Assembly (NCBI GenBank): GCA_022704525.1
Contig: JAKJGF010000001.1
Location: 1 to 63,163, forward strand
DNA: 63,163 nucleotides
Source of the DNA: Bacillota bacterium
Lineage (GTDB): Bacteria > Vulcanimicrobiota > SpSt-956 > JAKJGF01
Direction of reading: 5' to 3'
In this document: in pieces, positions 2,462 through 16,021 of the stretch
Numbering within the stretch: position 1 is the first letter of the stretch
Layout: every line of letters starts with the position of its first letter
Notes under the pieces: model-generated
The model's database searches: none
What the model saw: only the letters and a program-made list of their open reading frames with translations
Told to the model about the DNA's origin: nothing
Translations under genes and position numbers: made by a program

Positions 2462-5206
2462 TTAATTCACTATAAACTTTGTTGTACCAATTTTTATTTC
2501 GTCACCTGTGTTTAATTCAGTCATAATATCTATTTTTATTCCGTTTACATAAGTTTTATTTGTGCTTCCAAGATCTTCAATATAATATCTGTTATTCTTT
2601 CTTCTAATCTGAGCATGTATTGAAGATGTCTGCATATCGTAATCAAGACACAGATCATTCCCCGGGGCTCTTCCTATTTTAATATAATCTTTGTTAAGAG
2701 AGAAAGTGACTTTCTTTTTTCCCTCTCTCTCATATATCAATTCTTTTCCTTCCTGTGGCACATAAGGTATAGCCTTATCAATTGTATCTCTTGCCGGAAT
2801 CCCTTTAAAGGTAAATTTTACATTCCCAATCTTTATTTCATCATTTGTGTATAATTCAGTTCTGAAATCTATCCTGCTGCCATTAACATATGTTTTATTA
2901 CTACTTCTTAGATCTTCAATATAATATCTTCTGTCCTGTAATGTAATCTGTGCATGTATTGAAGATACCTGAAAATCATAATCAAGGCAGAGATCATTTC
3001 TTTTTGCCCTGCCTATTTTAATGCAATCTTTATTAAGTGGGAAAATTACTTTCCCTTTCCCCTCTCTGTTATATATGAGTTCACCCCACTCAGTGGAAAG
3101 CACTGCAGGAATAGTCCTGGAAGAAACTATGGTATGATCTTCCGTACTGATGGGAATCGGAATTACCTGAGAACTTTTATATTTTCCAGGTGAAATAATA
3201 GTTTTTTTATAGCTTTTTTCTTCTCTTAAAATCCCTGGTTCTGCTACAGCCATAGTTTTATCTCTTAAAATCCCTGGTTCTGCTACAGGCATGGTTTTAT
3301 CTTTTATGGGTGAGACAGCTTTTTTTTCAGGACTACCAGTATCTTTCTGAAGAGGTATTCCTTTTTTATCTTCTTCCTGTAGCTTTAATTCAGATTTTTT
3401 CTTTAATAATTCCATATGTGACGTAATTTCACTTTTTAATTTTTCTGATATATTTAACTTTGCTGCATTATTATAATACTCAAGGGCCTTATCCTCAAGT
3501 CCTGTTTTTTCGCAACATCTGGCCATGAACATGAGAATCTCGTAATTTTCTTTATCCAATTCCATAGCTTTTATATATTCCAGTTTCGCATTTAAATAAT
3601 CGCCTTTATTCTCATATTCTTTACCTGTATATATATGATCCTGAACTTTTTTACTACCGTGTATCTTTAAAAATTCATTTCTTATGTCCTGAATTGATTT
3701 GATTTTGTCTTTTACAGGGAATTCATTTTTTTTATCTTCAGTATCTTTCAGGCTTTCTGGCAGCTTTATATCTTTCTCTTTATTAACCGCCGGCATTTCA
3801 GGTCTGATTATTGTGAGTTCATCGTCATATTCTTCTTTTGAAGGAAGTCTTTTTTGTCTTTCCAGTATTTCATTTTTTATCTGCTCTGGTATATCCAGTT
3901 TTAGTACTTTAAAATACATCTCAGAAGCTCTATCATAAAAACCGAGTTTTTCAAAACACCTGGCAGTAGCTATAAAGATTTCATGGTTTTTCTCATCGAA
4001 TTCCATGGCTTTCATATATTCAAAGTTAGCATTAAAGAAATCTCCTTGATTTTCATATTCTTTAGCTCTGGATATATGATGGGTGGATTTTTTAATTGAT
4101 TGTAACTTAAGTAAATCATTCTTTATTTCCTGGATTGACTGATATCGCTCTTTCGGTTTAAATTCAAGTGCTCTGGATATAATTTTACTTAAGTGGTGTG
4201 ATGTGGAAGGATTTAGCTCTTCTACGGGAGGAAAATAAGGTATGAAATCCCTGGGGTGAGTTCTCGTAACTATATGAAAAACTGTTGCTCCCAGAGCATA
4301 TATATCACTTTTGGGTTCGGCTTTTCCGAGCCATTGCTCGGGAGGAGCATATCCTCCTGTAAGGAGAGCATACTGAGTTACCTGACCCTTAGAACCCTGA
4401 AAAAGTTTTGCTATTCCGAAATCGATTAATTTCAGTTCTCCCCCGGAAGTGATCATAATATTATCCGGTTTTAAGTCTCTAAAGATTATGGGTGCAGGGC
4501 GATTATGGAGATATTCTAAAACTTTACATATACTTAAAGCCCAGGTGATAATGGTATCTTCCGGAAAATACTCAGATCCTTTTAAATTTTTAATCATTTT
4601 AGCAATTGTTTCACCATGAATATAATCCATTACAAGGTATAATTTTTTCCCTTCAATAAAAAAGTCAGATATTCCCGGTATATTCGGATGTTCCAGAGTG
4701 GAAAGCATTTCTGCCTCAAGTCTGAAACTTCTCTCTATAACCTCATCAGGAATGTCAGCTTTCTGGTGCATTTCTTTAAGGGCCCAGTATTTACCGGGAA
4801 GGTTTAGATCCCGACTCAGGTATACCACGCCAAATCCTCCGGCAGCAATTCCATTGACTACTACATAACGGTTATTCAGGATTTTACCAATAGAAGGATA
4901 GGATGTGGCTAATTTTAATGTTTTTTCATTTTTATATTCCAGAACCATATAGAAGTATTCATCATCTATAAAAAAGTCCAGTATATTGGGATATCTGGTT
5001 TTAAAATCCATCTTTCTGGATTGTTCACGTTTTTCTTTGAATTCATTTATGATTGTTTTATAATATTCACCTGGATTGTCTATTTTTATCTGTTTGAATA
5101 GAAGTTGTATCTTTGTAGCACTATCTTCTACCAGATAGAAAGATGTTTTTTCTCCCGATGGAATAGTTTTTAAGATTTTATATTTATCCAATATTGAATT
5201 TGTCAT
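2462..5206 (-). CDS. Ser/Thr protein kinase with duplicated TPR-like modules and two C-terminal FHA domains
   Basis: 914 aa. The first ~100 aa look like a degenerate kinase N-lobe. The true kinase has GGFGVVYL, ALKEM, FRDLKPDNIM, DFGIA, GGYAPPE. There are two copies of a KEYEN.GD...A..EY.KAME.D module and two near-duplicate FHA units (IKIGRA..NDLCLDYD...SSIHAQI...RYYIEDL.S.NKTYVNG). A 36-nt tandem duplication near 3229-3300 encodes KTM(P/A)VAEPGILR twice. Confidence 0.85.
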   Translation of the reverse strand: MTNSILDKYKILKTIPSGEKTSFYLVEDSATKIQLLFKQIKIDNPGEYYKTIINEFKEKREQSRKMDFKTRYPNILDFFIDDEYFYMVLEYKNEKTLKLATSYPSIGKILNNRYVVVNGIAAGGFGVVYLSRDLNLPGKYWALKEMHQKADIPDEVIERSFRLEAEMLSTLEHPNIPGISDFFIEGKKLYLVMDYIHGETIAKMIKNLKGSEYFPEDTIITWALSICKVLEYLHNRPAPIIFRDLKPDNIMITSGGELKLIDFGIAKLFQGSKGQVTQYALLTGGYAPPEQWLGKAEPKSDIYALGATVFHIVTRTHPRDFIPYFPPVEELNPSTSHHLSKIISRALEFKPKERYQSIQEIKNDLLKLQSIKKSTHHISRAKEYENQGDFFNANFEYMKAMEFDEKNHEIFIATARCFEKLGFYDRASEMYFKVLKLDIPEQIKNEILERQKRLPSKEEYDDELTIIRPEMPAVNKEKDIKLPESLKDTEDKKNEFPVKDKIKSIQDIRNEFLKIHGSKKVQDHIYTGKEYENKGDYLNAKLEYIKAMELDKENYEILMFMARCCEKTGLEDKALEYYNNAAKLNISEKLKSEITSHMELLKKKSELKLQEEDKKGIPLQKDTGSPEKKAVSPIKDKTMPVAEPGILRDKTMAVAEPGILREEKSYKKTIISPGKYKSSQVIPIPISTEDHTIVSSRTIPAVLSTEWGELIYNREGKGKVIFPLNKDCIKIGRAKRNDLCLDYDFQVSSIHAQITLQDRRYYIEDLRSSNKTYVNGSRIDFRTELYTNDEIKIGNVKFTFKGIPARDTIDKAIPYVPQEGKELIYEREGKKKVTFSLNKDYIKIGRAPGNDLCLDYDMQTSSIHAQIRRKNNRYYIEDLGSTNKTYVNGIKIDIMTELNTGDEIKIGTTKFIVN

Positions 5207-7051: not shown

Positions 7052-8896
7052 ATGACACATTTAGAAACAATAGAACAAAAAGTTCAGGAAGAATTTAAAC
7101 AGTATAAAGAGATGCTTATGATATGTACAGGCACGGGATGTGTTACTGTAAAAAGTTTTAATGTCCGGGATAAACTTTCTGAAGAAATAAAGGCAAAGGG
7201 CCTTGAGAAGGATTATCTTATAGTGCCTACAGGATGTTATGGTTTTTGTGCCGCAGGTCCCATAATAGTAGTTCAGCCTGAAGGTATATTTTATCAGAAG
7301 GTTAAAGAAGAAGATGTAAAGGAAATTGTAGAAGAACATCTTATTAATGGAAAACCTGTGGAAAGACTCATGTACAGAGACCCTGTAAGTGGTGAAATCA
7401 ATGAGAAGATAGAAGATATAAAATTCTTTACGAAACAGAAACTTATTGCCCTTCGTAACAAAGGTCTTATAGATCCTGAAAACATAGAACATTATATATC
7501 CCGTGGTGGTTATAGAGAAATTCGCAAAATTCTGGAAGAAAATAATCCTGAAGGAGTTATAAATGAAATAATCGCCTCAGGTATAAGAGGCCGTGGAGGC
7601 GGCGGATTCCCTACAGGAGTAAAATGGCAATTATGTCGTAAAGCAGCTATTGAGAAAAAAGAAACTCCTACCGTCATATGTAATGGGCTGGATAGAACTG
7701 TTATTGAAACAGATCCCCATTCGGTTATTGAAGGTATGATGATAGGTGCTTTTGCTACAGGTGCACAGGAAGGTTTTATATATATCCGTAAAGAATTTGC
7801 CTTTGCTATAAAAAGACTGGAGAAAGCACTTGCCCAGGCAAGAAAATATGGATTTTTAGGTGATAATATATTAAACAAAAACTTTAAATTTGATATTAAC
7901 ATACACTTAAGTGCAGGTGCTTTTGTGTGTGGAGAATCTTCTGCTCTTATGGCTTCTATGTCAGGCCGTGTTGCAGAACCAAAGTCCAAGTATATACATA
8001 ATGTGGAACGAGGTTTCCGGGATAAACCTGCATTGCTTAATAATGTGGAAACATGGGCGAATATACCTGTGATTATTGAAAAAGGCGCAAAATGGTTTGC
8101 CTCTATAGGAACAGGTGATATAAGTGATAATCCTCTTAAAGGTTCTTCAGGAACAAAGATTTTTTCTCTTACAGGGAAGCTAAATAATACAGGTCTTGCA
8201 GAAGTACCTATGGGCACTACCCTGAGAGAAATTATTTATGACATAGGAGGAGGTATTCCTGGAGGAAAAAAATTTAAAGCAGTGCAGATAGGAGGCCCTT
8301 CAGGAGGATGTATCCCTGAAAGTTTACTGGATATAAAGGTGGATTTTGATACTCTTACAGAAGCAGGTACTATAATGGGTTCAGGCAATATGGTTGTAAT
8401 GGATGAAACAGCCTGTATGGTTGATGTAGCCCGTTATTTTGTCAATTTCCTCAAGGATGAGTCCTGCGGAAAATGTACTCCCTGTCGTGAAGGTCTTTAT
8501 GCTCTGAATAACATTCTTACAGGAATATGTAATGGAGAAGGGAAAGAGGAGGATATGAAATTCCTGGAAGAATTATCTGAAACTATTCAGGAAACAAGTT
8601 TCTGTCAGCTTGGGGCTACTTCTCCCAATCCTGTGTTATCTACAATTCGTTATTTCCGGGATGAATACGAAAAACATATAAGAGAAAAAAAATGTCCTGC
8701 CGGTGTATGTAAAGCTCTTATTTCATACAGTATACTTGAGGATAAGTGTATCGGATGTACTATGTGTGCTAAAAAGTGTCCTGTTAATGCAATAACAGGT
8801 GAAAATAAAAAGGTTCATGTCCTTGATAAGATTAAATGTATAAAATGTGGTATATGTTATGATGTCTGCCCGGTTGATGCCGTGGAAAGAATTTAA
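7052..8896 (+). CDS. NuoF/HydB-like NAD(P)H-binding flavoprotein subunit with N-terminal [2Fe-2S] domain and C-terminal 2x[4Fe-4S] ferredoxin domain
   Basis: The tracked ORF starts at 7013, but the ATG at 7052 (MTHLETIEQ) follows the upstream stop and fits better. Motifs: ICTGTGC...GCYGFCAAGP; GLIDPE; SGIRGRGGGGFPTGVKW (FMN/NADH site); ESCGKCTPCREG; CIGCTMCAKKCP and CIKCGICYDVCP. Confidence 0.85.
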   Translation: MTHLETIEQKVQEEFKQYKEMLMICTGTGCVTVKSFNVRDKLSEEIKAKGLEKDYLIVPTGCYGFCAAGPIIVVQPEGIFYQKVKEEDVKEIVEEHLINGKPVERLMYRDPVSGEINEKIEDIKFFTKQKLIALRNKGLIDPENIEHYISRGGYREIRKILEENNPEGVINEIIASGIRGRGGGGFPTGVKWQLCRKAAIEKKETPTVICNGLDRTVIETDPHSVIEGMMIGAFATGAQEGFIYIRKEFAFAIKRLEKALAQARKYGFLGDNILNKNFKFDINIHLSAGAFVCGESSALMASMSGRVAEPKSKYIHNVERGFRDKPALLNNVETWANIPVIIEKGAKWFASIGTGDISDNPLKGSSGTKIFSLTGKLNNTGLAEVPMGTTLREIIYDIGGGIPGGKKFKAVQIGGPSGGCIPESLLDIKVDFDTLTEAGTIMGSGNMVVMDETACMVDVARYFVNFLKDESCGKCTPCREGLYALNNILTGICNGEGKEEDMKFLEELSETIQETSFCQLGATSPNPVLSTIRYFRDEYEKHIREKKCPAGVCKALISYSILEDKCIGCTMCAKKCPVNAITGENKKVHVLDKIKCIKCGICYDVCPVDAVERI

Positions 8897-13539: not shown

Positions 13540-13623
13540 AAGATAATTCCGGATTTTAAATAATTTTATTATATATTATAAGGGGAAAAGTTGTTATTAA
13601 GCAAGAGGTCAGGCATAAAAAAT

Positions 13624-13651
13624 AAAATAAAGCTCTCAGGAGCTTTATTTT
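13624..13651 (-). terminator. rho-independent terminator downstream of the tRNA-Asn gene
   Basis: 12-bp stem AAAATAAAGCTC / GAGCTTTATTTT with loop TCAG. On the minus strand it is followed by TTTTATTTTTT. Confidence 0.7.
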
Positions 13652-13692
13652 ATCAATAAAAAAATAAAACTTATGTTTTACTTTTCATATAA

Positions 13693-14051
13693 CTCCCCGA
13701 GCTGGACTCGAACCAGCAACCTAGCGGTTACGATCTGACTTCAGTTACCTGAAGAGTCGGACTTTTTCTTTACCCGCCTATCTGATGATAGGGTAGGGTA
13801 GCGGGTGTAAAGTCTCTGCACTTGCCCTCTACCATTTTTCTGATAGATGCTAGCTCAAGATTGTCCGGTAATCTCATAACCCGGATTTCCTTGAATTAGC
13901 CCGCTTTTCACTCTAACATTTCTATTAGAGGCTGCTAACTTGGCATGAATTTTTCTATGGCAATTTGCACATAAGATCTATCAGCTTTTGCCATAAAATT
14001 TCCTCATACCACCGGCACAGCCGCTTGCTCTGCCAATTGAGCTATCGAGGA
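13693..14051 (-). tRNA. tRNA-Asn(GUU), split by a group I intron (exon 1 14051-14017, exon 2 13730-13693)
   Basis: The joined exons give UCCUCGA UA GCUC AAUUGGCA GAGC A AGCGG CUGU|UAA CCGCU AGGUU GCUGG UUCGAGU CCAGC UCGGGGA G. This is a 73-nt cloverleaf with all stems paired (one G-U), discriminator G73 and anticodon loop CUGUUAA. CCA is not encoded. Confidence 0.85.
13731..14016 (-). ncRNA. group I intron (IC3-like tRNA-anticodon intron), 286 nt
   Basis: The 5' exon ends in U and the intron ends in G. An internal guide GCAGCC (plus-strand 13930-13935) pairs with exon GGCUGU, placing G-U at the splice site. The core strings GGUGCAGAGACU.., GCUACCCUA, GGGUAAAGAAAAAGUCC, UUCAAGGAAAUCC and AAUCUUGAGCUAGC resemble, from my memory, the cyanobacterial tRNA-Leu intron core. 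Confidence 0.8.
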
Positions 14052-14077
14052 ATTTATTACTTATTACAGCGGGGAAA

Positions 14078-14106
14078 ATTATAACACATAAAAAAGAAAA
14101 AGGCAA
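14078..14106 (-). promoter_or_regulatory. sigma-70-type promoter for tRNA-Asn
   Basis: Minus strand reads TTGCCT-17 nt-TGtTATAAT (extended -10). The -10 ends 26 nt upstream of the mature tRNA 5' end. Confidence 0.55.
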
Positions 14107-14263
14107 GATTATTTCAAAAATTTTTTTCTGTATCCTGTATATGAATAGTAACAGCGGGATAAGAAGGATTTAAAAGGTTATTGAAGAATATACATTGAGG
14201 AATTTAAAAATAAATATTTTTTTTGAGAATAAAATAAAAGTTAATATATTTTGGAGGAAGTTT

Positions 14264-14446
14264 ATGATAGATGATGAACTTTTAAAAATAATAGCCTGTC
14301 CCAAATGTAAAGGCGATCTGGAATATGTAAAAGGAGAAGAGGAATTTTTTGATTGTCATAAGTGTAAACTCCGTTATCCAATACGGAATGATATCCCTGT
14401 GATGCTTATAGATCAGGCTTTAATTTTAGAGGATAATACCAGATAA
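14264..14446 (+). CDS. Trm112/YcaR-family small zinc-ribbon protein
   Basis: GGAGG lies 8 nt upstream of the ATG at 14264 (the tracked ORF starts earlier, at 14195). Motifs: LLKIIACPKCKG.L...CHKCKLRYPIRNDIPVMLIDQA. Confidence 0.75.
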   Translation: MIDDELLKIIACPKCKGDLEYVKGEEEFFDCHKCKLRYPIRNDIPVMLIDQALILEDNTR

Positions 14447-14551: not shown

Positions 14552-16021
14552 ATGTCTGTTAAATATAGTTTAAAAGAAGCAGCAGGACTTATAGAGTGCA
14601 AGATAGATAAACTCAAAGCAGCTATAAAAGAGAATAAGCTTAAGGCAGAAAAAGAGAAAATTACTGATAAACAATTTAAATATTTAATAACAGAAGAAGA
14701 ATTAATATCGTACGCGAAAAAGGCAGGTATTAAGTTGATTAATCCTGAGCTCAAAGAGATTTCTGATGCTTCAGATAAATCTAATGAGAAGAAGGGTGAA
14801 GTAAAAAAGCACGAAGAGAAGAAGGGTGAAGTAAAAAAGCACGAAGAGAAGAAGGGTGAAGTAAAAAAGCACGAAGAGAAGAAGGATGAAGTAAAAAAGC
14901 ATGAAGAGAAGAAGGATGAAGTAAAAAAGCACGAAGAGAAGAAGGATGAAGTAAAAAAGCACGGCGACAGCAAGCAGGAAGACAGGGAATATATAGATAA
15001 GAAAGTTGAAGAAAAGGAAGAAGATCTTCAGGAAAAATATCAGGATGCATTAAAAAAGCTCGTTTTAATAGAAGAAGAAATTCAAAGTTATAAAGAATTT
15101 AAACAAGTTAGTGAATATTTACAGAAAGAGCTGGAATTTGCTAATTACGATTTTAATGAGCAGGCAAAAGAATATGAAACTCTTCTAAGAGATTATGAAA
15201 AAATTGAATTAGAAAAGCATAAACAGGATCAAATTATTCTCGAAGCAGAACAGACTTTGCTTGATATGGTTGAACAGTATAAAGAACTGGCAGAGGATAC
15301 CTATAGTAGGGATAAGAAAATAACAGAACTAAGCCATATTATTGAAGATTATAAAAGTAGATTCGGGCAAATAGGTGGCGAAATAACAAATCTGGAACAA
15401 TATAAAATGTTAGAAGAGAATTATACTATAGTTCTGATGGAAAATGCTAAGCTTAAAAAAGAAATAAATGATCTGAAAGAATATATAAATTCTATGGAGA
15501 GTAAATTAAAAACTGAAGAGAGACTTTCTGTGGAAGACTTGAAAGAATATCAGGATATGAAGAAGAAATATCAGGAGACCCTGGAAGATTTAGAAATATA
15601 CGGAGAAATAACAAAAAGATATCGAGAATCTCAGGAAGAGTTAAAAAATTATAATAATATAAAGAAAAAATATGAAGAAACCCTGGAAGATATGAAATTA
15701 TATGAAGAAATCAAGAAAAAGTATGAGGAACTTCAGGAAGAATTGAAAGATTATAAGGATATAAAAGAAAAATATGACCTTCTCCAGAAAGATACAAAAG
15801 ATTATGAGGAAATAAAGAAAAAGTATGAAGATATTGTTCGGGAAAATGAAAAACTTCATGGTGAATTAAAAGAGAGAATTCGACAGATTGGTACAATTTC
15901 TAATATTCATAAAGAGATTGAAAAGCTTCAGCTTGAGTTGAAATCTGCAAAAGAATATATAGTTTCACTTGAAGAACAGTTAGGTACCTCAGAAAAATCA
16001 GTTCTATCCAAAGAATTTTAA
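14552..16021 (+). CDS. long coiled-coil protein with N-terminal HTH-like segment and tandem decapeptide repeats
   Basis: 489 aa and very K/E-rich. The N-terminal SLKEAAGLIECKIDKLKAAIKENKL resembles an excisionase/MerR-type HTH. It has six EKK(G/D)EVKKHE repeats and later repeated (D/E)YxxIKKKYEE(T)LEDL units. Confidence 0.6.
   Translation: MSVKYSLKEAAGLIECKIDKLKAAIKENKLKAEKEKITDKQFKYLITEEELISYAKKAGIKLINPELKEISDASDKSNEKKGEVKKHEEKKGEVKKHEEKKGEVKKHEEKKDEVKKHEEKKDEVKKHEEKKDEVKKHGDSKQEDREYIDKKVEEKEEDLQEKYQDALKKLVLIEEEIQSYKEFKQVSEYLQKELEFANYDFNEQAKEYETLLRDYEKIELEKHKQDQIILEAEQTLLDMVEQYKELAEDTYSRDKKITELSHIIEDYKSRFGQIGGEITNLEQYKMLEENYTIVLMENAKLKKEINDLKEYINSMESKLKTEERLSVEDLKEYQDMKKKYQETLEDLEIYGEITKRYRESQEELKNYNNIKKKYEETLEDMKLYEEIKKKYEELQEELKDYKDIKEKYDLLQKDTKDYEEIKKKYEDIVRENEKLHGELKERIRQIGTISNIHKEIEKLQLELKSAKEYIVSLEEQLGTSEKSVLSKEF
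14786..14965 (+). repeat. 6 x 30-bp in-frame tandem repeat
   Basis: GAGAAGAAGG(G/A)TGAAGTAAAAAAGCA(C/T)GAA: three GGT (Gly) units then three GAT (Asp) units, with no spacers. Confidence 0.9.

Follow-up and report, generated by a model that had tools for sequence, protein, structure and literature searches.

How a tRNA gene that is interrupted inside its own anticodon yields a tRNA, and what the long hairpin beside its 5′ splice site is, are the two questions raised by the minus strand of positions 13693-14051 in the 63,163-nt stretch of DNA analyzed here (the window). This segment is a tRNA-Asn(GUU) gene in which U35 and U36 are separated by a 286-nt group I intron. The gene and its flanking signals are laid out as follows:

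13611..13654, minus strand: terminator-like hairpin of 15 pairs (the hairpin itself at 13654-13621) followed by a T run, from a consensus scan
13693..13730, minus strand: 3′ exon, tRNA-Asn positions 36-73, 38 nt, starting UAACCG at U36
13731..14016, minus strand: group I intron, 286 nt, starting with G and with its terminal (omega) G at 13731; placed by the RF00028 match and core covariation
14017..14051, minus strand: 5′ exon, tRNA-Asn(GUU) positions 1-35, 35 nt, ending GGCUGU, with U35 as U-1 of the intron
14078..14106, minus strand: promoter-like site, TTGCCT, 17 nt and a TG-extended TATAAT, with 10 of 12 consensus matches (consensus match only)

The joined 73-mer is assigned to tRNA-Asn(GUU) by ARAGORN, and its minimum free energy fold is a cloverleaf (−28.9 kcal/mol) with a 7-nt anticodon loop containing GUU. 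The 3′ exon carries the discriminator G73 at 13693 and does not encode CCA; G73 is an identity element for tRNA-Asn in E. coli. The exon boundary is also marked by comparison, as intron-less tRNA-Asn genes of other organisms, in both DNA and RNA runs, match 14017-14052 and part from the window exactly at 14017. Beyond this point these genes, which come from the same metagenomes, read ...TAACCGTTAGG, and the sequence over the exon junction in intron-less homologs is CTGTTAACC. These results bear out the initial annotation, made from the sequence alone, in which a 286-nt group I intron follows position 35 of a tRNA-Asn(GUU), the spliced 73-nt cloverleaf has a CUGU/UAA loop and G73, the 5′ exon ends in U (at 14017) and the intron ends in G (at 13731). 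The promoter (TTGCCT-17-TG-TATAAT) and terminator that it had listed are both present in the consensus scan. Run without introns, ARAGORN finds zero tRNAs in the 63-kb window, which holds no other tRNA besides the split Asn gene.

A search with Rfam RF00028 (Intron_gpI), proposed in the initial annotation as a check, matches 13738-13957 on the minus strand with 80.5 bits (E = 7e-19) over the full model, positions 1-253. This is well over the gathering score of 50 bits and is the sole Rfam match in the window. The elements of the ribozyme map as follows, all on the minus strand:

13930..13939: internal guide GUUAGCAGCC, 10 nt, made of GUUA (P10) and GCAGCC (P1)
13911..13930: P2 hairpin with a GAAA loop; the window keeps 8 of 8 pairs, and compensatory changes occur at 7 of the 8 across the family
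13759..13904: catalytic core, from the RF00028 match, the mapped helices and covariation
13904-13900 with 13805-13801: P3
13895-13890 with 13859-13854: P4
13885-13881 with 13868-13864: P5
13846-13841 with 13834-13829: P6a
13819-13811: J6/7-P7
13800-13771: P8
13770-13759: J8/7-P7′
13739..13754: P9 hairpin, CUUCAG-GUAA-CUGAAG, in which 5 of 6 pairs covary across the family

The guide is the element that ties the ribozyme to its exons. GCAGCC (13935-13930) pairs with GGCUGU at all six positions and places a terminal U·G at the 5′ splice site, just as the initial annotation had proposed, and GUUA (13939-13936) forms P10 with UAAC of the 3′ exon (4/4). The 10-mer GTTRRCAGCC has a single occurrence when both strands of the 63-kb window are counted, against 0.15 per window in shuffles, a rate that scales to about 3e-4 per 286-nt stretch. 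The identical guide, together with identical exon ends, is found in 28 of 41 family members.

Covariation backs the helices P3-P9 of the core. In an alignment of 30 core sequences, compensatory double changes occur at 29 of 51 predicted pairs, distributed over P2, P3, P5, P6a, P8 and P9. At columns 50/87 in P4 the other 29 sequences share a G-C pair that is replaced by A-U in the window alone, a private compensatory change. Both strands of P7 (..AGACU.. and ..AGUCC), the pseudoknot that would form the guanosine-binding site, are present; they are invariant in the family, so that P7 offers no covariation to count, and RNAalifold cannot draw pseudoknots. Judged by its sequence, the ribozyme core looks intact, with exons, guide and terminal G included.

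The same intron occurs well beyond the window. We found 44 further Asn-site introns in public genomes, mostly of Omnitrophota, Melainabacteria and Patescibacteria; of the 45 genome loci matching the core pattern, 44 are tRNA-Asn genes that carry the intron at this same site, again with U-1 and a terminal G, and when 15 of the loci were sampled, 14 scored above the RF00028 gathering score. The same core pattern gave 0 matches in a viral contig collection, and there is no synteny between the genes neighboring the intron in the window and those at the 45 genome loci.

The insertion site was singled out in the initial annotation as unusual. It is indeed none of the four classical bacterial tRNA intron sites, yet neither is it new, given the 44 further loci and the work of Williams (2020; bioRxiv 10.1101/2020.01.27.920355), who extended the bacterial tRNA intron settings to 21. 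That study lists an “Asn.4Ug” class, and its seed alignment contains Pam37.Asn.4Ug, with the same insertion point. The arrangement CUGU/...G/UAA is that of Asn.4Ug (insertion after the fourth anticodon-loop base, U-1, terminal G), so the site itself is already catalogued. The Pam37 seed shares the host tRNA, insertion point, U-1 and terminal G with the window, and its guide, ...UAGCAGCC, is likewise set back from the splice site, by about 40 nt. However, the window core is only 56% identical to this seed, with seeds from other tRNAs being at least as close, and lacks the extra hairpin between P7 and P3′ (a P7.1/P7.2-like insert) of Pam37. With this low identity and the missing post-P7 hairpin, the intron of the window belongs to a second, compact lineage at the Asn.4Ug site, distinct from that of the Pam37 seed. 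Members of this compact core lineage occur mainly in Omnitrophota, Melainabacteria and Patescibacteria.

A resemblance to cyanobacterial tRNA-Leu introns, also suggested in the initial annotation, is compatible with these comparisons in that Leu.3Ug is nominally the best seed (58%), yet the core is about equally far (55-60% identical) from all nine published seeds compared. By inspection the layout is IC3-like, with GNRA-capped P2 and P9, a simple P5 and no P2.1. Like the IC3 introns of Anabaena and other cyanobacterial tRNA-Leu(UAA) and of Azoarcus tRNA-Ile(CAU), it has a compact core of ∼200 nt in an anticodon loop, builds P1 and P10 from the anticodon arm, and contains the conserved strings GCAGAGACU and AAGA.A.AGUCC. 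The classical IC3 introns, 55-58% identical to the window, split Leu after position 34 and Ile2 after loop position 5, in contrast to the split of Asn after 35 here. They also have short P1 loops and proven self-splicing, whereas in the window the P1 loop is enlarged and self-splicing is predicted.

The P1 loop (L1) differs in length across the family. Among the 44 relatives, L1 lengths fall into classes of 4-15 nt (22 loci), 30-108 nt (8) and 302-379 nt (14); that of the window, 81 nt, lies within the range of the middle class, and 77 nt separate its splice site from the guide. The large inserts, of ∼300-380 nt in 14 of 44 relatives, encode a conserved protein, and 12 of them carry an intact gene for this HNH endonuclease of ∼100-110 amino acids. 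Its last codons (…CANCHRELHAK-LAAS…) run through the P10-adjoining strand, the guide and P2. The proteins have a mean column identity of 77% and invariant C..C, EFHH and CANCH..H motifs. They match the HNH endonuclease families phrog_2255 and phrog_3106 (E = 1e-28 to 8e-30), the HNH domains of McrA (6e-4) and a group II maturase in the PDB, and Pfam HNH at 18.5-19 bits, under the gathering cutoff of 21.4; a search of NCBIfam returned no model for the L1 HNH protein. We take the PHROG profiles to settle the predicted membership in the HNH family. The phage endonucleases of PHROG 2255 and 3106 share the motif pattern C..C...EFHH...CANCH..H with the L1 proteins, which are, however, about half the profile length (about 110 amino acids versus 211-252 positions) and, unlike the phage families, are found in bacterial chromosomes.

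Because of the location of the ORF and its patchy, multi-phylum distribution, we infer that these HNH proteins would mediate homing into tRNA-Asn genes. They could represent an undescribed homing-endonuclease lineage targeting tRNA-Asn anticodon-arm DNA, in which the last codons double as P1 extension, P10, guide and P2, an idea that we put forward tentatively and consider less likely than not.

This family gives a context for the L1 of the window, which comprises the following minus-strand features:

13940..14016: L1 insert (P1 extension rod), recognized by its fold z score and by a stem shared with full-length inserts
13942..13977: relic of the 3′ end of an HNH ORF, ATC TTA TGT GCA AAT TGC CAT AGA AAA ATT CAT GCC = ILCANCHRKIHA, by frame-anchored translation
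13978..13983: two in-frame stops (TGA TAG) that separate the tail of the relic from its possible start region

The insert folds into a rod with an outer stem of 14010-14004 paired with 13948-13942 and an inner stem of 13994-13988 paired with 13963-13957. Together with the exon tail and guide it reaches −36.7 kcal/mol (z = −5.44), whereas shuffles lie at −20.4 ± 3.0 and none of 200 is as stable; the duplex of the two L1 ends has a z score of about −5 to −6. The AUGGCAA/UUGCCAU hairpin that had been read in the P1 loop is thus real. The same two-part stem occurs in the full-length inserts of the relatives L029, L066, L014 and L010. It is absent from most Omnitrophota-type HNH-bearing L1s, and we claim the closing stem solely for the window and this group of four. 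We dropped a test of whether the last His codon covaries with the 5′ strand (CAU-AUG, CAC-GUG), which was circular because only helices picked for complementarity were counted, and in which single-helix p values were mostly weak.

What remains in the L1 of the window is a possible start region, the two in-frame stops and an ORF tail (ILCANCHRKIHAK). Translation from the ATG at 14007 gives MRKFYGKS, the two stops and then ILCANCH.... The insert was compared end-anchored because MAFFT misplaced this short L1 against the long ones. Over its 12 amino acids the tail is 67-83% identical to the HNH proteins of 13 relatives (E about 1e-7, tblastn against a small database), and at the DNA level it is 90% identical to the end of the L029 ORF over 30 nt (E = 4e-6, blastn). 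Both its frame and its distance to the guide are the same as in the relatives' HNH ORFs. The start region shares an 8-nt exact match and a common spacing with L029 and L022, with a 5-amino-acid match at E = 0.025, and its homology to either is only suggested. The window thus has no intact HNH ORF; the last ∼12 codons are left, the EFHH part is deleted and the ORF body has lost about 234 nt. We read its L1 as the putative remnant of a decayed HNH homing-endonuclease gene, one that encodes ∼100-110 amino acids in relatives. The initial annotation had recognized a long hairpin inserted in P1, which stands, but had missed that it is a gene remnant.

Other, independent intermediates of decay are L009, L088 and L054/L067 as well as L069, L076 and L084, in which the frame is broken. 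In L088 an internal deletion fuses the N terminus to LLCANCH, and L009 retains ENCHRELHAN. Within one intron family there are therefore intact, frame-broken, internally deleted and ORF-free versions, as in the Goddard-Burt cycle of gain, decay and loss, where a peripheral loop of the group I intron likewise houses the endonuclease ORF.

Among tRNA introns, the example of an intron-encoded homing endonuclease is reportedly I-Ssp6803I of the Synechocystis tRNA-fMet intron. I-Ssp6803I is a PD-(D/E)XK enzyme. The L1 protein differs from it in being a small HNH enzyme, and its ORF, located in L1, continues across P10, the guide and P2.

The locus is transcribed. Nine metatranscriptomes each yield one contig spanning about 13693-14060, with depth up to 55 and uncovered flanks. 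The contigs end at 13693-13702 in 8 of the 9 runs, while that of run X19 extends to 13608. In no run does the contig reach upstream of 14060, as would be expected if transcription starts shortly after the −10 box. All nine contain the unspliced, intron-containing form, with trimmed ends. The spliced junction was not seen in the assembled contigs of any of the nine RNA runs. This is weak, essentially uninformative evidence, because contigs from standard libraries seldom capture 73-nt modified tRNAs. The intron, ordinary in kind, is probably functional, and we infer that it is removed in vivo.

Three other readings of the locus were weighed. The locus might be dead, with an intron (or an enlarged P1 loop) that has stopped splicing, such that a non-functional pre-tRNA is made and another tRNA-Asn serves the cell. 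The unspliced form alone in 9 of 9 RNA runs, with ends at the tRNA boundaries, would agree with this, as would the clear decay of the homing-endonuclease gene and the possibility that the genome holds another tRNA-Asn gene outside the window. However, standard RNA-seq contigs cannot prove the absence of a 73-nt tRNA, and exons, guide, terminal G and every core helix look intact. The private compensatory A-U in P4 would be unexpected for a drifting pseudogene, and RNA from between the promoter-like and terminator-like sites is abundant relative to the silent flanks. The size of L1 as such appears to be tolerated, since relatives with an L1 of 4 to 379 nt keep the same core. We consider a dead locus improbable.

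Still less probable, and in our view quite unlikely, is that the rod was never part of a protein gene, being a purpose-built P1 extension or another structured insert in which the LCANCH-like reading is coincidental or forced by the ribozyme. The rod is very stable, the single matches at the 5′ end are individually non-significant, and, whether or not an ORF is present, P10, P1 and P2 constrain the guide-adjoining KLAAS... throughout the family. The matching segment 13977-13942, however, lies upstream of this constrained part; its frame and its spacing to the guide are those of the HNH ORFs of 13 relatives, whose last 12 codons it matches in protein as well as DNA alignments, and similar internal deletions are seen in L088 and L009. 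The remaining reading concerns the splice sites, as ARAGORN in intron mode gives tRNA-Thr(cgt) i(35,286), with similar calls in many relatives, which would correspond to the exon register CU/CGUAA and a tRNA-Thr(CGU). We enumerated the splice registers explicitly, because this mode picks registers that break the terminal-G rule. In the Thr register the intron would end in U rather than G, A-U would replace U·G at the cleavage site and the guide would be out of register, the six P1 pairs forming in the Asn register only; intron-less homologs, moreover, show CTGTTAACC at the junction. This register can be set aside with near certainty.

Considered together, these data are best explained, and we hold this with good confidence, by a transcribed tRNA-Asn(GUU) gene with a self-removing Asn.4Ug intron whose L1 rod is an HNH relic. 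The chromosomal gene is transcribed together with the group I intron between U35 and U36. The guide GUUAGCAGCC would first bind GGCUGU at the end of the 5′ exon, placing U·G at the cleavage site, and later UAAC at the start of the 3′ exon. An external guanosine would cut after U35, and the freed 3′-OH of U35 would attack after the terminal G at 13731 to give the 73-nt tRNA. The possible start region and the last ∼12 ORF codons would pair as a stable rod, equivalent to the closing stem of L029-type inserts, and bring the splice site beside the guide; the rod may have been kept since it helps P1 to form.

What is new relative to the published Asn.4Ug class is the HNH gene in the P1 loop of relatives and its relic in the window; Williams (2020; bioRxiv 10.1101/2020.01.27.920355) mentions neither an L1 HNH gene nor its relics. 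There is also a practical consequence for annotation. Standard tRNA finders miss the split gene: ARAGORN finds none, its intron mode mislabels the gene as Thr, and tRNAscan-SE, according to its version 2.0 paper, was not built to detect group I introns. Because of this, tRNA-Asn may seem to be missing from genomes of Omnitrophota, Melainabacteria and Patescibacteria.

At a single insertion site, the family ranges from members whose HNH gene is intact, by way of frame-broken and internally deleted ones, to those that have lost it cleanly. This compact natural system lends itself to the question of how a homing endonuclease comes to share sequence with a ribozyme, and of what remains after the endonuclease has died. 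If the L1 proteins are indeed an undescribed HNH lineage, a decaying gene would here leave behind a stable helix that the ribozyme keeps, and dead endonuclease genes would be one concrete source from which group I introns acquire peripheral structure.

The two halves of a tRNA-Asn gene, separated by 286 nt, lie on the minus strand of the window among the following features.

14106-14078, minus strand: promoter-like site TTGCCT, 17 nt, TG-TATAAT (consensus match only)
14051-14017, minus strand: 5' half of tRNA-Asn, read from the sequence
13738-13957, minus strand: match to Group I catalytic intron, Rfam RF00028 (80.5 bits, gathering score 50, E = 7e-19)
13939-13930, minus strand: guide GUUAGCAGCC, which pairs with both exon ends
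13730-13693, minus strand: 3' half of tRNA-Asn, read from the sequence
13654-13621, minus strand: terminator-like hairpin (consensus match only)

Once joined, the halves form a 73-mer that folds into a clean cloverleaf (-28.9 kcal/mol) and that ARAGORN, run on the spliced sequence as the initial annotation had proposed for a tRNA finder, calls as tRNA-Asn(GUU). The claim of a tRNA-Asn(GUU) interrupted in its anticodon is thereby upheld. The anticodon loop reads CUGU/UAA, with the break between U35 and U36; in the Asn register the last base is U for the 5' exon and G for the intron, as had been read. A competing register, CU/CGUAA, is proposed by the intron mode of ARAGORN and yields tRNA-Thr(CGU). 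There the intron would end in U, the cleavage site would receive an A-U pair and the guide would be left unpaired; all six P1 pairs form in the Asn register only. Independent support for the Asn register comes from contigs of other organisms, in DNA and RNA runs of the same sample type, which agree with the 5' exon at all but one base, diverge from the window precisely at 14017 and read on as ...TAACCGTTAGGTTCC..., an uninterrupted tRNA-Asn gene. The intron mode is similarly wrong (Thr, Leu, Stop) in many relatives. With default settings ARAGORN calls no tRNA in the unspliced 63-kb window, so that default tRNA finding misses 13693-14051 completely; genomes carrying the intron will appear to be without tRNA-Asn.

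The intron itself is the sole Rfam match within the window, and its score places the group I assignment, for which an RF00028 search had been suggested, above the gathering score. Within the guide, GCAGCC and the final six bases of the 5' exon, GGCUGU, form 6/6 P1 pairs with U·G at the cleavage site, exactly as first described, and the GUUA just before GCAGCC forms P10 with UAAC, the four bases with which the 3' exon begins. The guide 10-mer, with purines allowed at two wobble-capable positions, occurs once in the window, both strands together, against 0.15 expected per window from shuffles, or about 3e-4 when scaled to an intron-size stretch. From an alignment of 30 compact-lineage cores, RNAalifold predicts P2, P3, P4, P5, P6a, P8 and P9, with compensatory double changes at 29 of 51 predicted pairs, and the window retains every one of these helices. 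One P4 pair is A-U in the window alone and G-C in the other 29 cores, and from this private compensatory change we argue that selection on the fold continues. P7, invariant among the 30 cores and a pseudoknot, offers no covariation to count for or against.

Many activated-sludge and digester metagenomes, and some marine ones, contain the locus. In each of nine metatranscriptomes a single contig covers the split gene and almost nothing else (from 13693-13702 to 14042-14060, depth 6-55; only one reaches 13608), so the gene is transcribed, and its RNA occurs with the intron still inside and the ends close to those of a mature tRNA. None of these contigs, assembled from ordinary libraries, contains the exon-exon joint; we do not count this against splicing, since such libraries rarely recover short modified tRNAs and assembly drops minor variants. 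Contigs from two RNA runs (X26, X44) carry two unaligned letters just past the tRNA 3' end (G73, 13693), where the genome has TT (window 13691-13693). The observation and main interpretation of the initial annotation are correct, with splicing itself predicted. The promoter and terminator said to bracket the gene were both located, as consensus matches only. Intron-less tRNA-Asn genes with a near-identical 5' half (14017-14052, one mismatch) and other flanks and 3' half occur in two DNA runs (X1, X8) and one RNA run (X25), in which their depth is 4-6 times higher; these are potential homing targets or donors in the same community.

The neighboring genes are ordinary chromosomal ones (an aldehyde:ferredoxin-oxidoreductase-type protein, ThiF, peroxiredoxin, a Trm112-like protein, MnmG and PlsX) and recur in activated-sludge and digester assemblies. 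The window matches contig MWAT01000001.1 of NCBI assembly GCA_002069435.1. The small, divergently oriented Trm112-like zinc-ribbon gene adjoining the split tRNA (14195-14446, plus strand) is called at 83 aa here and at 60 aa in other assemblies. An ORF of 489 aa (14552-16021, plus strand) has no Pfam match and is called as 479 aa and 529 aa in two other assemblies, L046 and L047, whose MnmG protein is identical; its length thus varies between strains or assemblies.

The initial annotation had considered the Asn site unusual. A scan of about 80,000 genomes raised the tRNA and position settings of such introns from four classical ones (Leu.3Ug, Arg.5Ug, fMet.2Ug and Ile2.5Ug) to 21, and its seed alignment includes Pam37.Asn.4Ug, inserted after the fourth anticodon-loop base of tRNA-Asn (Williams, bioRxiv 2020, 10.1101/2020.01.27.920355). 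The site therefore lies outside the classical settings but is not new: a catalogue lists it, if only through a seed entry without description in this preprint. UAGCAGCC is found in the Pam37 seed too, some 40 nt inside the intron.

Scanning one genome per species with the core pattern TAGCAGYC-N(100-130)-GYAGAGACT-N(35-65)-GANANAGTCC returned 45 loci, and none in viral contigs. Forty resolve computationally to tRNA-Asn(GUU) with the same split point, U-1 and terminal G, and four more (L021, L024, L025, L038) have the same exon ends as judged by eye. Counting the window's intron, genome examples number at least 45. The sole locus that is not tRNA-Asn, L005, holds a group I intron at 3226-3926 (RF00028, 56 bits; span about 700 nt; guide GCAGTC) whose 3' flank (...AAGCTGGTGGTTGTGGGTTCGATCCCC...) resembles a different tRNA. 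Hosts are mostly Candidatus Omnitrophota, with Melainabacteria, Patescibacteria (Levybacteria), Bacteroidota, Ignavibacteriota, Planctomycetota, a cyanobacterium and a few more. The RF00028 gathering score is passed by 14 of 15 sampled loci; no neighbor genes are shared with the window among the 45, and no second tRNA-Asn lies within the 8 kb examined around relatives' loci. An Omnitrophota locus, L035, has an unrelated c-di-GMP-I riboswitch (RF01051, 61.9 bits, 7890-7983) about 6 kb from its split tRNA-Asn.

Two core lineages occupy the Asn site. Compact-lineage cores, which include the window, are 68-78% identical to it, whereas the Pam37 type has an extra hairpin after P7 and 56-60% identity. 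The window's core is about equidistant (55-60%) from all nine published seeds compared, cyanobacterial Leu.3Ug being nominally best. The cyanobacterium Floridaenema fluviatile (L001, 2701-2963) has an Asn intron almost identical to the Pam37 seed, of the second lineage with the extra hairpin. In five loci (L013, L015, L018, L027, L045) the anticodon stem reads GACUGU and the guide is still GCAGCC, leaving an A·C mismatch in P1 (5/6 pairs); since the guide does not track the host tRNA, these introns may have been recently transferred.

The distance from 5' splice site to guide, which spans the P1 loop (L1), falls into three classes among 44 relatives: 4-15 nt in 22, 30-108 nt in 8 and 302-379 nt in 14. 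The window, at 81 nt, belongs to the second. Twelve of the 14 long inserts encode an intact protein of ~100-110 aa; that of L039 has an ORF without the CANCH motif, and that of L024 runs off the locus edge. The 12 proteins have a mean column identity of 77% and the invariant positions C..CGY...ALEFHH.DP...F.IS..G..RSW..V..EL.KC..LCANCHRE.H. They match PHROG HNH-endonuclease families 2255 and 3106 (E = 1e-28 to 8e-30) and, along the entire Pfam model, Pfam HNH at 18.5-19 bits, below the 21.4 cutoff; a PDB search with the alignment profile recovers HNH domains from McrA (6ghc) and from a group II intron maturase (6me0), and NCBIfam has no model for the protein. The last codons, ...H-A-K-L-A-A-S..., also make up the bases adjoining P10, the guide and the beginning of P2, so protein and ribozyme share sequence at this point. 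In nine loci (L003, L010, L014, L019, L022, L029, L035, L036, L037) the intact frame runs on through P10, guide and P2 (...AKLAAS.GN..V...), such that ~15-20 codons double as ribozyme structure. In L012, L028 and L042 the ORF ends, through a one-base shift, at a TAG inside GUUAGCAGCC.

The window's L1 is, by its sequence, a relic of this gene. Its frame from the ATG at 14007, fixed by the guide, reads MRKFYGKS-stop-stop-ILCANCHRKIHAKLAASNRNVRVKSGL, and the L022 counterpart reads MRKDNR...ILCANCHRELHAKLAASNGNIRVKSGL. Beyond K-L-A-A the ribozyme constrains the sequence of every member, and a match there is uninformative for homology. The informative 36 nt (13977-13942) align, as protein, with the final 12 codons of the ORFs in 13 relatives, 67-83% of the amino acids being identical (E about 1e-7, small database); as DNA, 30 nt match the end of the L029 ORF at 90% (E = 4e-6). 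On the 5' side, GGTGGT-ATG-AGG-AAA resembles GGCGGC-ATG-AGA-AAA of L022 (5 aa, E = 0.025), and GTATGA, 9 nt, ATGGCAA resembles GTATGA, 7 nt, ATGGCAA of L029, whose ATG is the start codon; this is suggestive of homology to the ORF starts. Relative to L029 (L1 = 315 nt), ~234 nt are missing. The HNH core (EFHH...) is gone, the reading frame holds two stops, and the L029-like ATG and the tail are in different frames. No endonuclease can be made. The long hairpin of the "extended P1" in the initial annotation is real (z = -5.44); its identity as a decayed HNH homing-endonuclease gene is a real addition to that reading.

A metagenome scan for the ORF tail together with the guide, allowing for codon degeneracy, found 37 further loci, most with an open frame of ≥100 aa and several decaying.

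Decaying P1 loops among relatives
L088: L1 = 136 nt; N-terminal ...TKETRLYSD runs straight into LLCANCHREVHSK; start codon now TTG
L054, L067: L1 ~110-118 nt; 19-aa tail kept
L069, L076, L084: frames broken
L009 (genome set): L1 = 51 nt; ENCHRELHAN kept

All that other intermediate loops retain is a 5' hairpin (UCACGAGC...GCGAGUG), which is found as well at the head of the full-length inserts of Omnitrophota type.

In the window, exon tail, L1 and guide are predicted to fold into P1 (6 bp), an internal loop with the P10 bases and a long two-part helix, or rod (-36.7 kcal/mol, z = -5.44 against shuffles), pairing GGUAUGA with UCAUGCC and (UUUU)AUGGCAA with UUGCCAU(AGAA). In L029, L066, L014 and L010, full-length inserts pair their first ~30 nt with the last ORF codons in the same two-part stem (duplex z-scores -2.6 to -5.0; in L029, GUAUGA with UUCAUAC and UAUGGCAA with UUGUCAUA), the inner helix holding the ORF start codon. 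Given this shared stem, the best reading of the rod is that it once closed an ORF-bearing loop and was left standing after deletion of the body. The end-to-end duplex is not significant in most Omnitrophota-type inserts, so the stem is not universal. A covariation test at the last His codon was circular and was dropped. The stem would bring the splice site next to the guide, helping P1 to form, and in intact versions might also limit translation of the endonuclease. Considered together, the loops conform to the classic pattern in which a homing-endonuclease gene is gained, decays and is lost, here at one site and in an intron family that displays every stage of decay, with protein-coding and ribozyme functions on the same bases.
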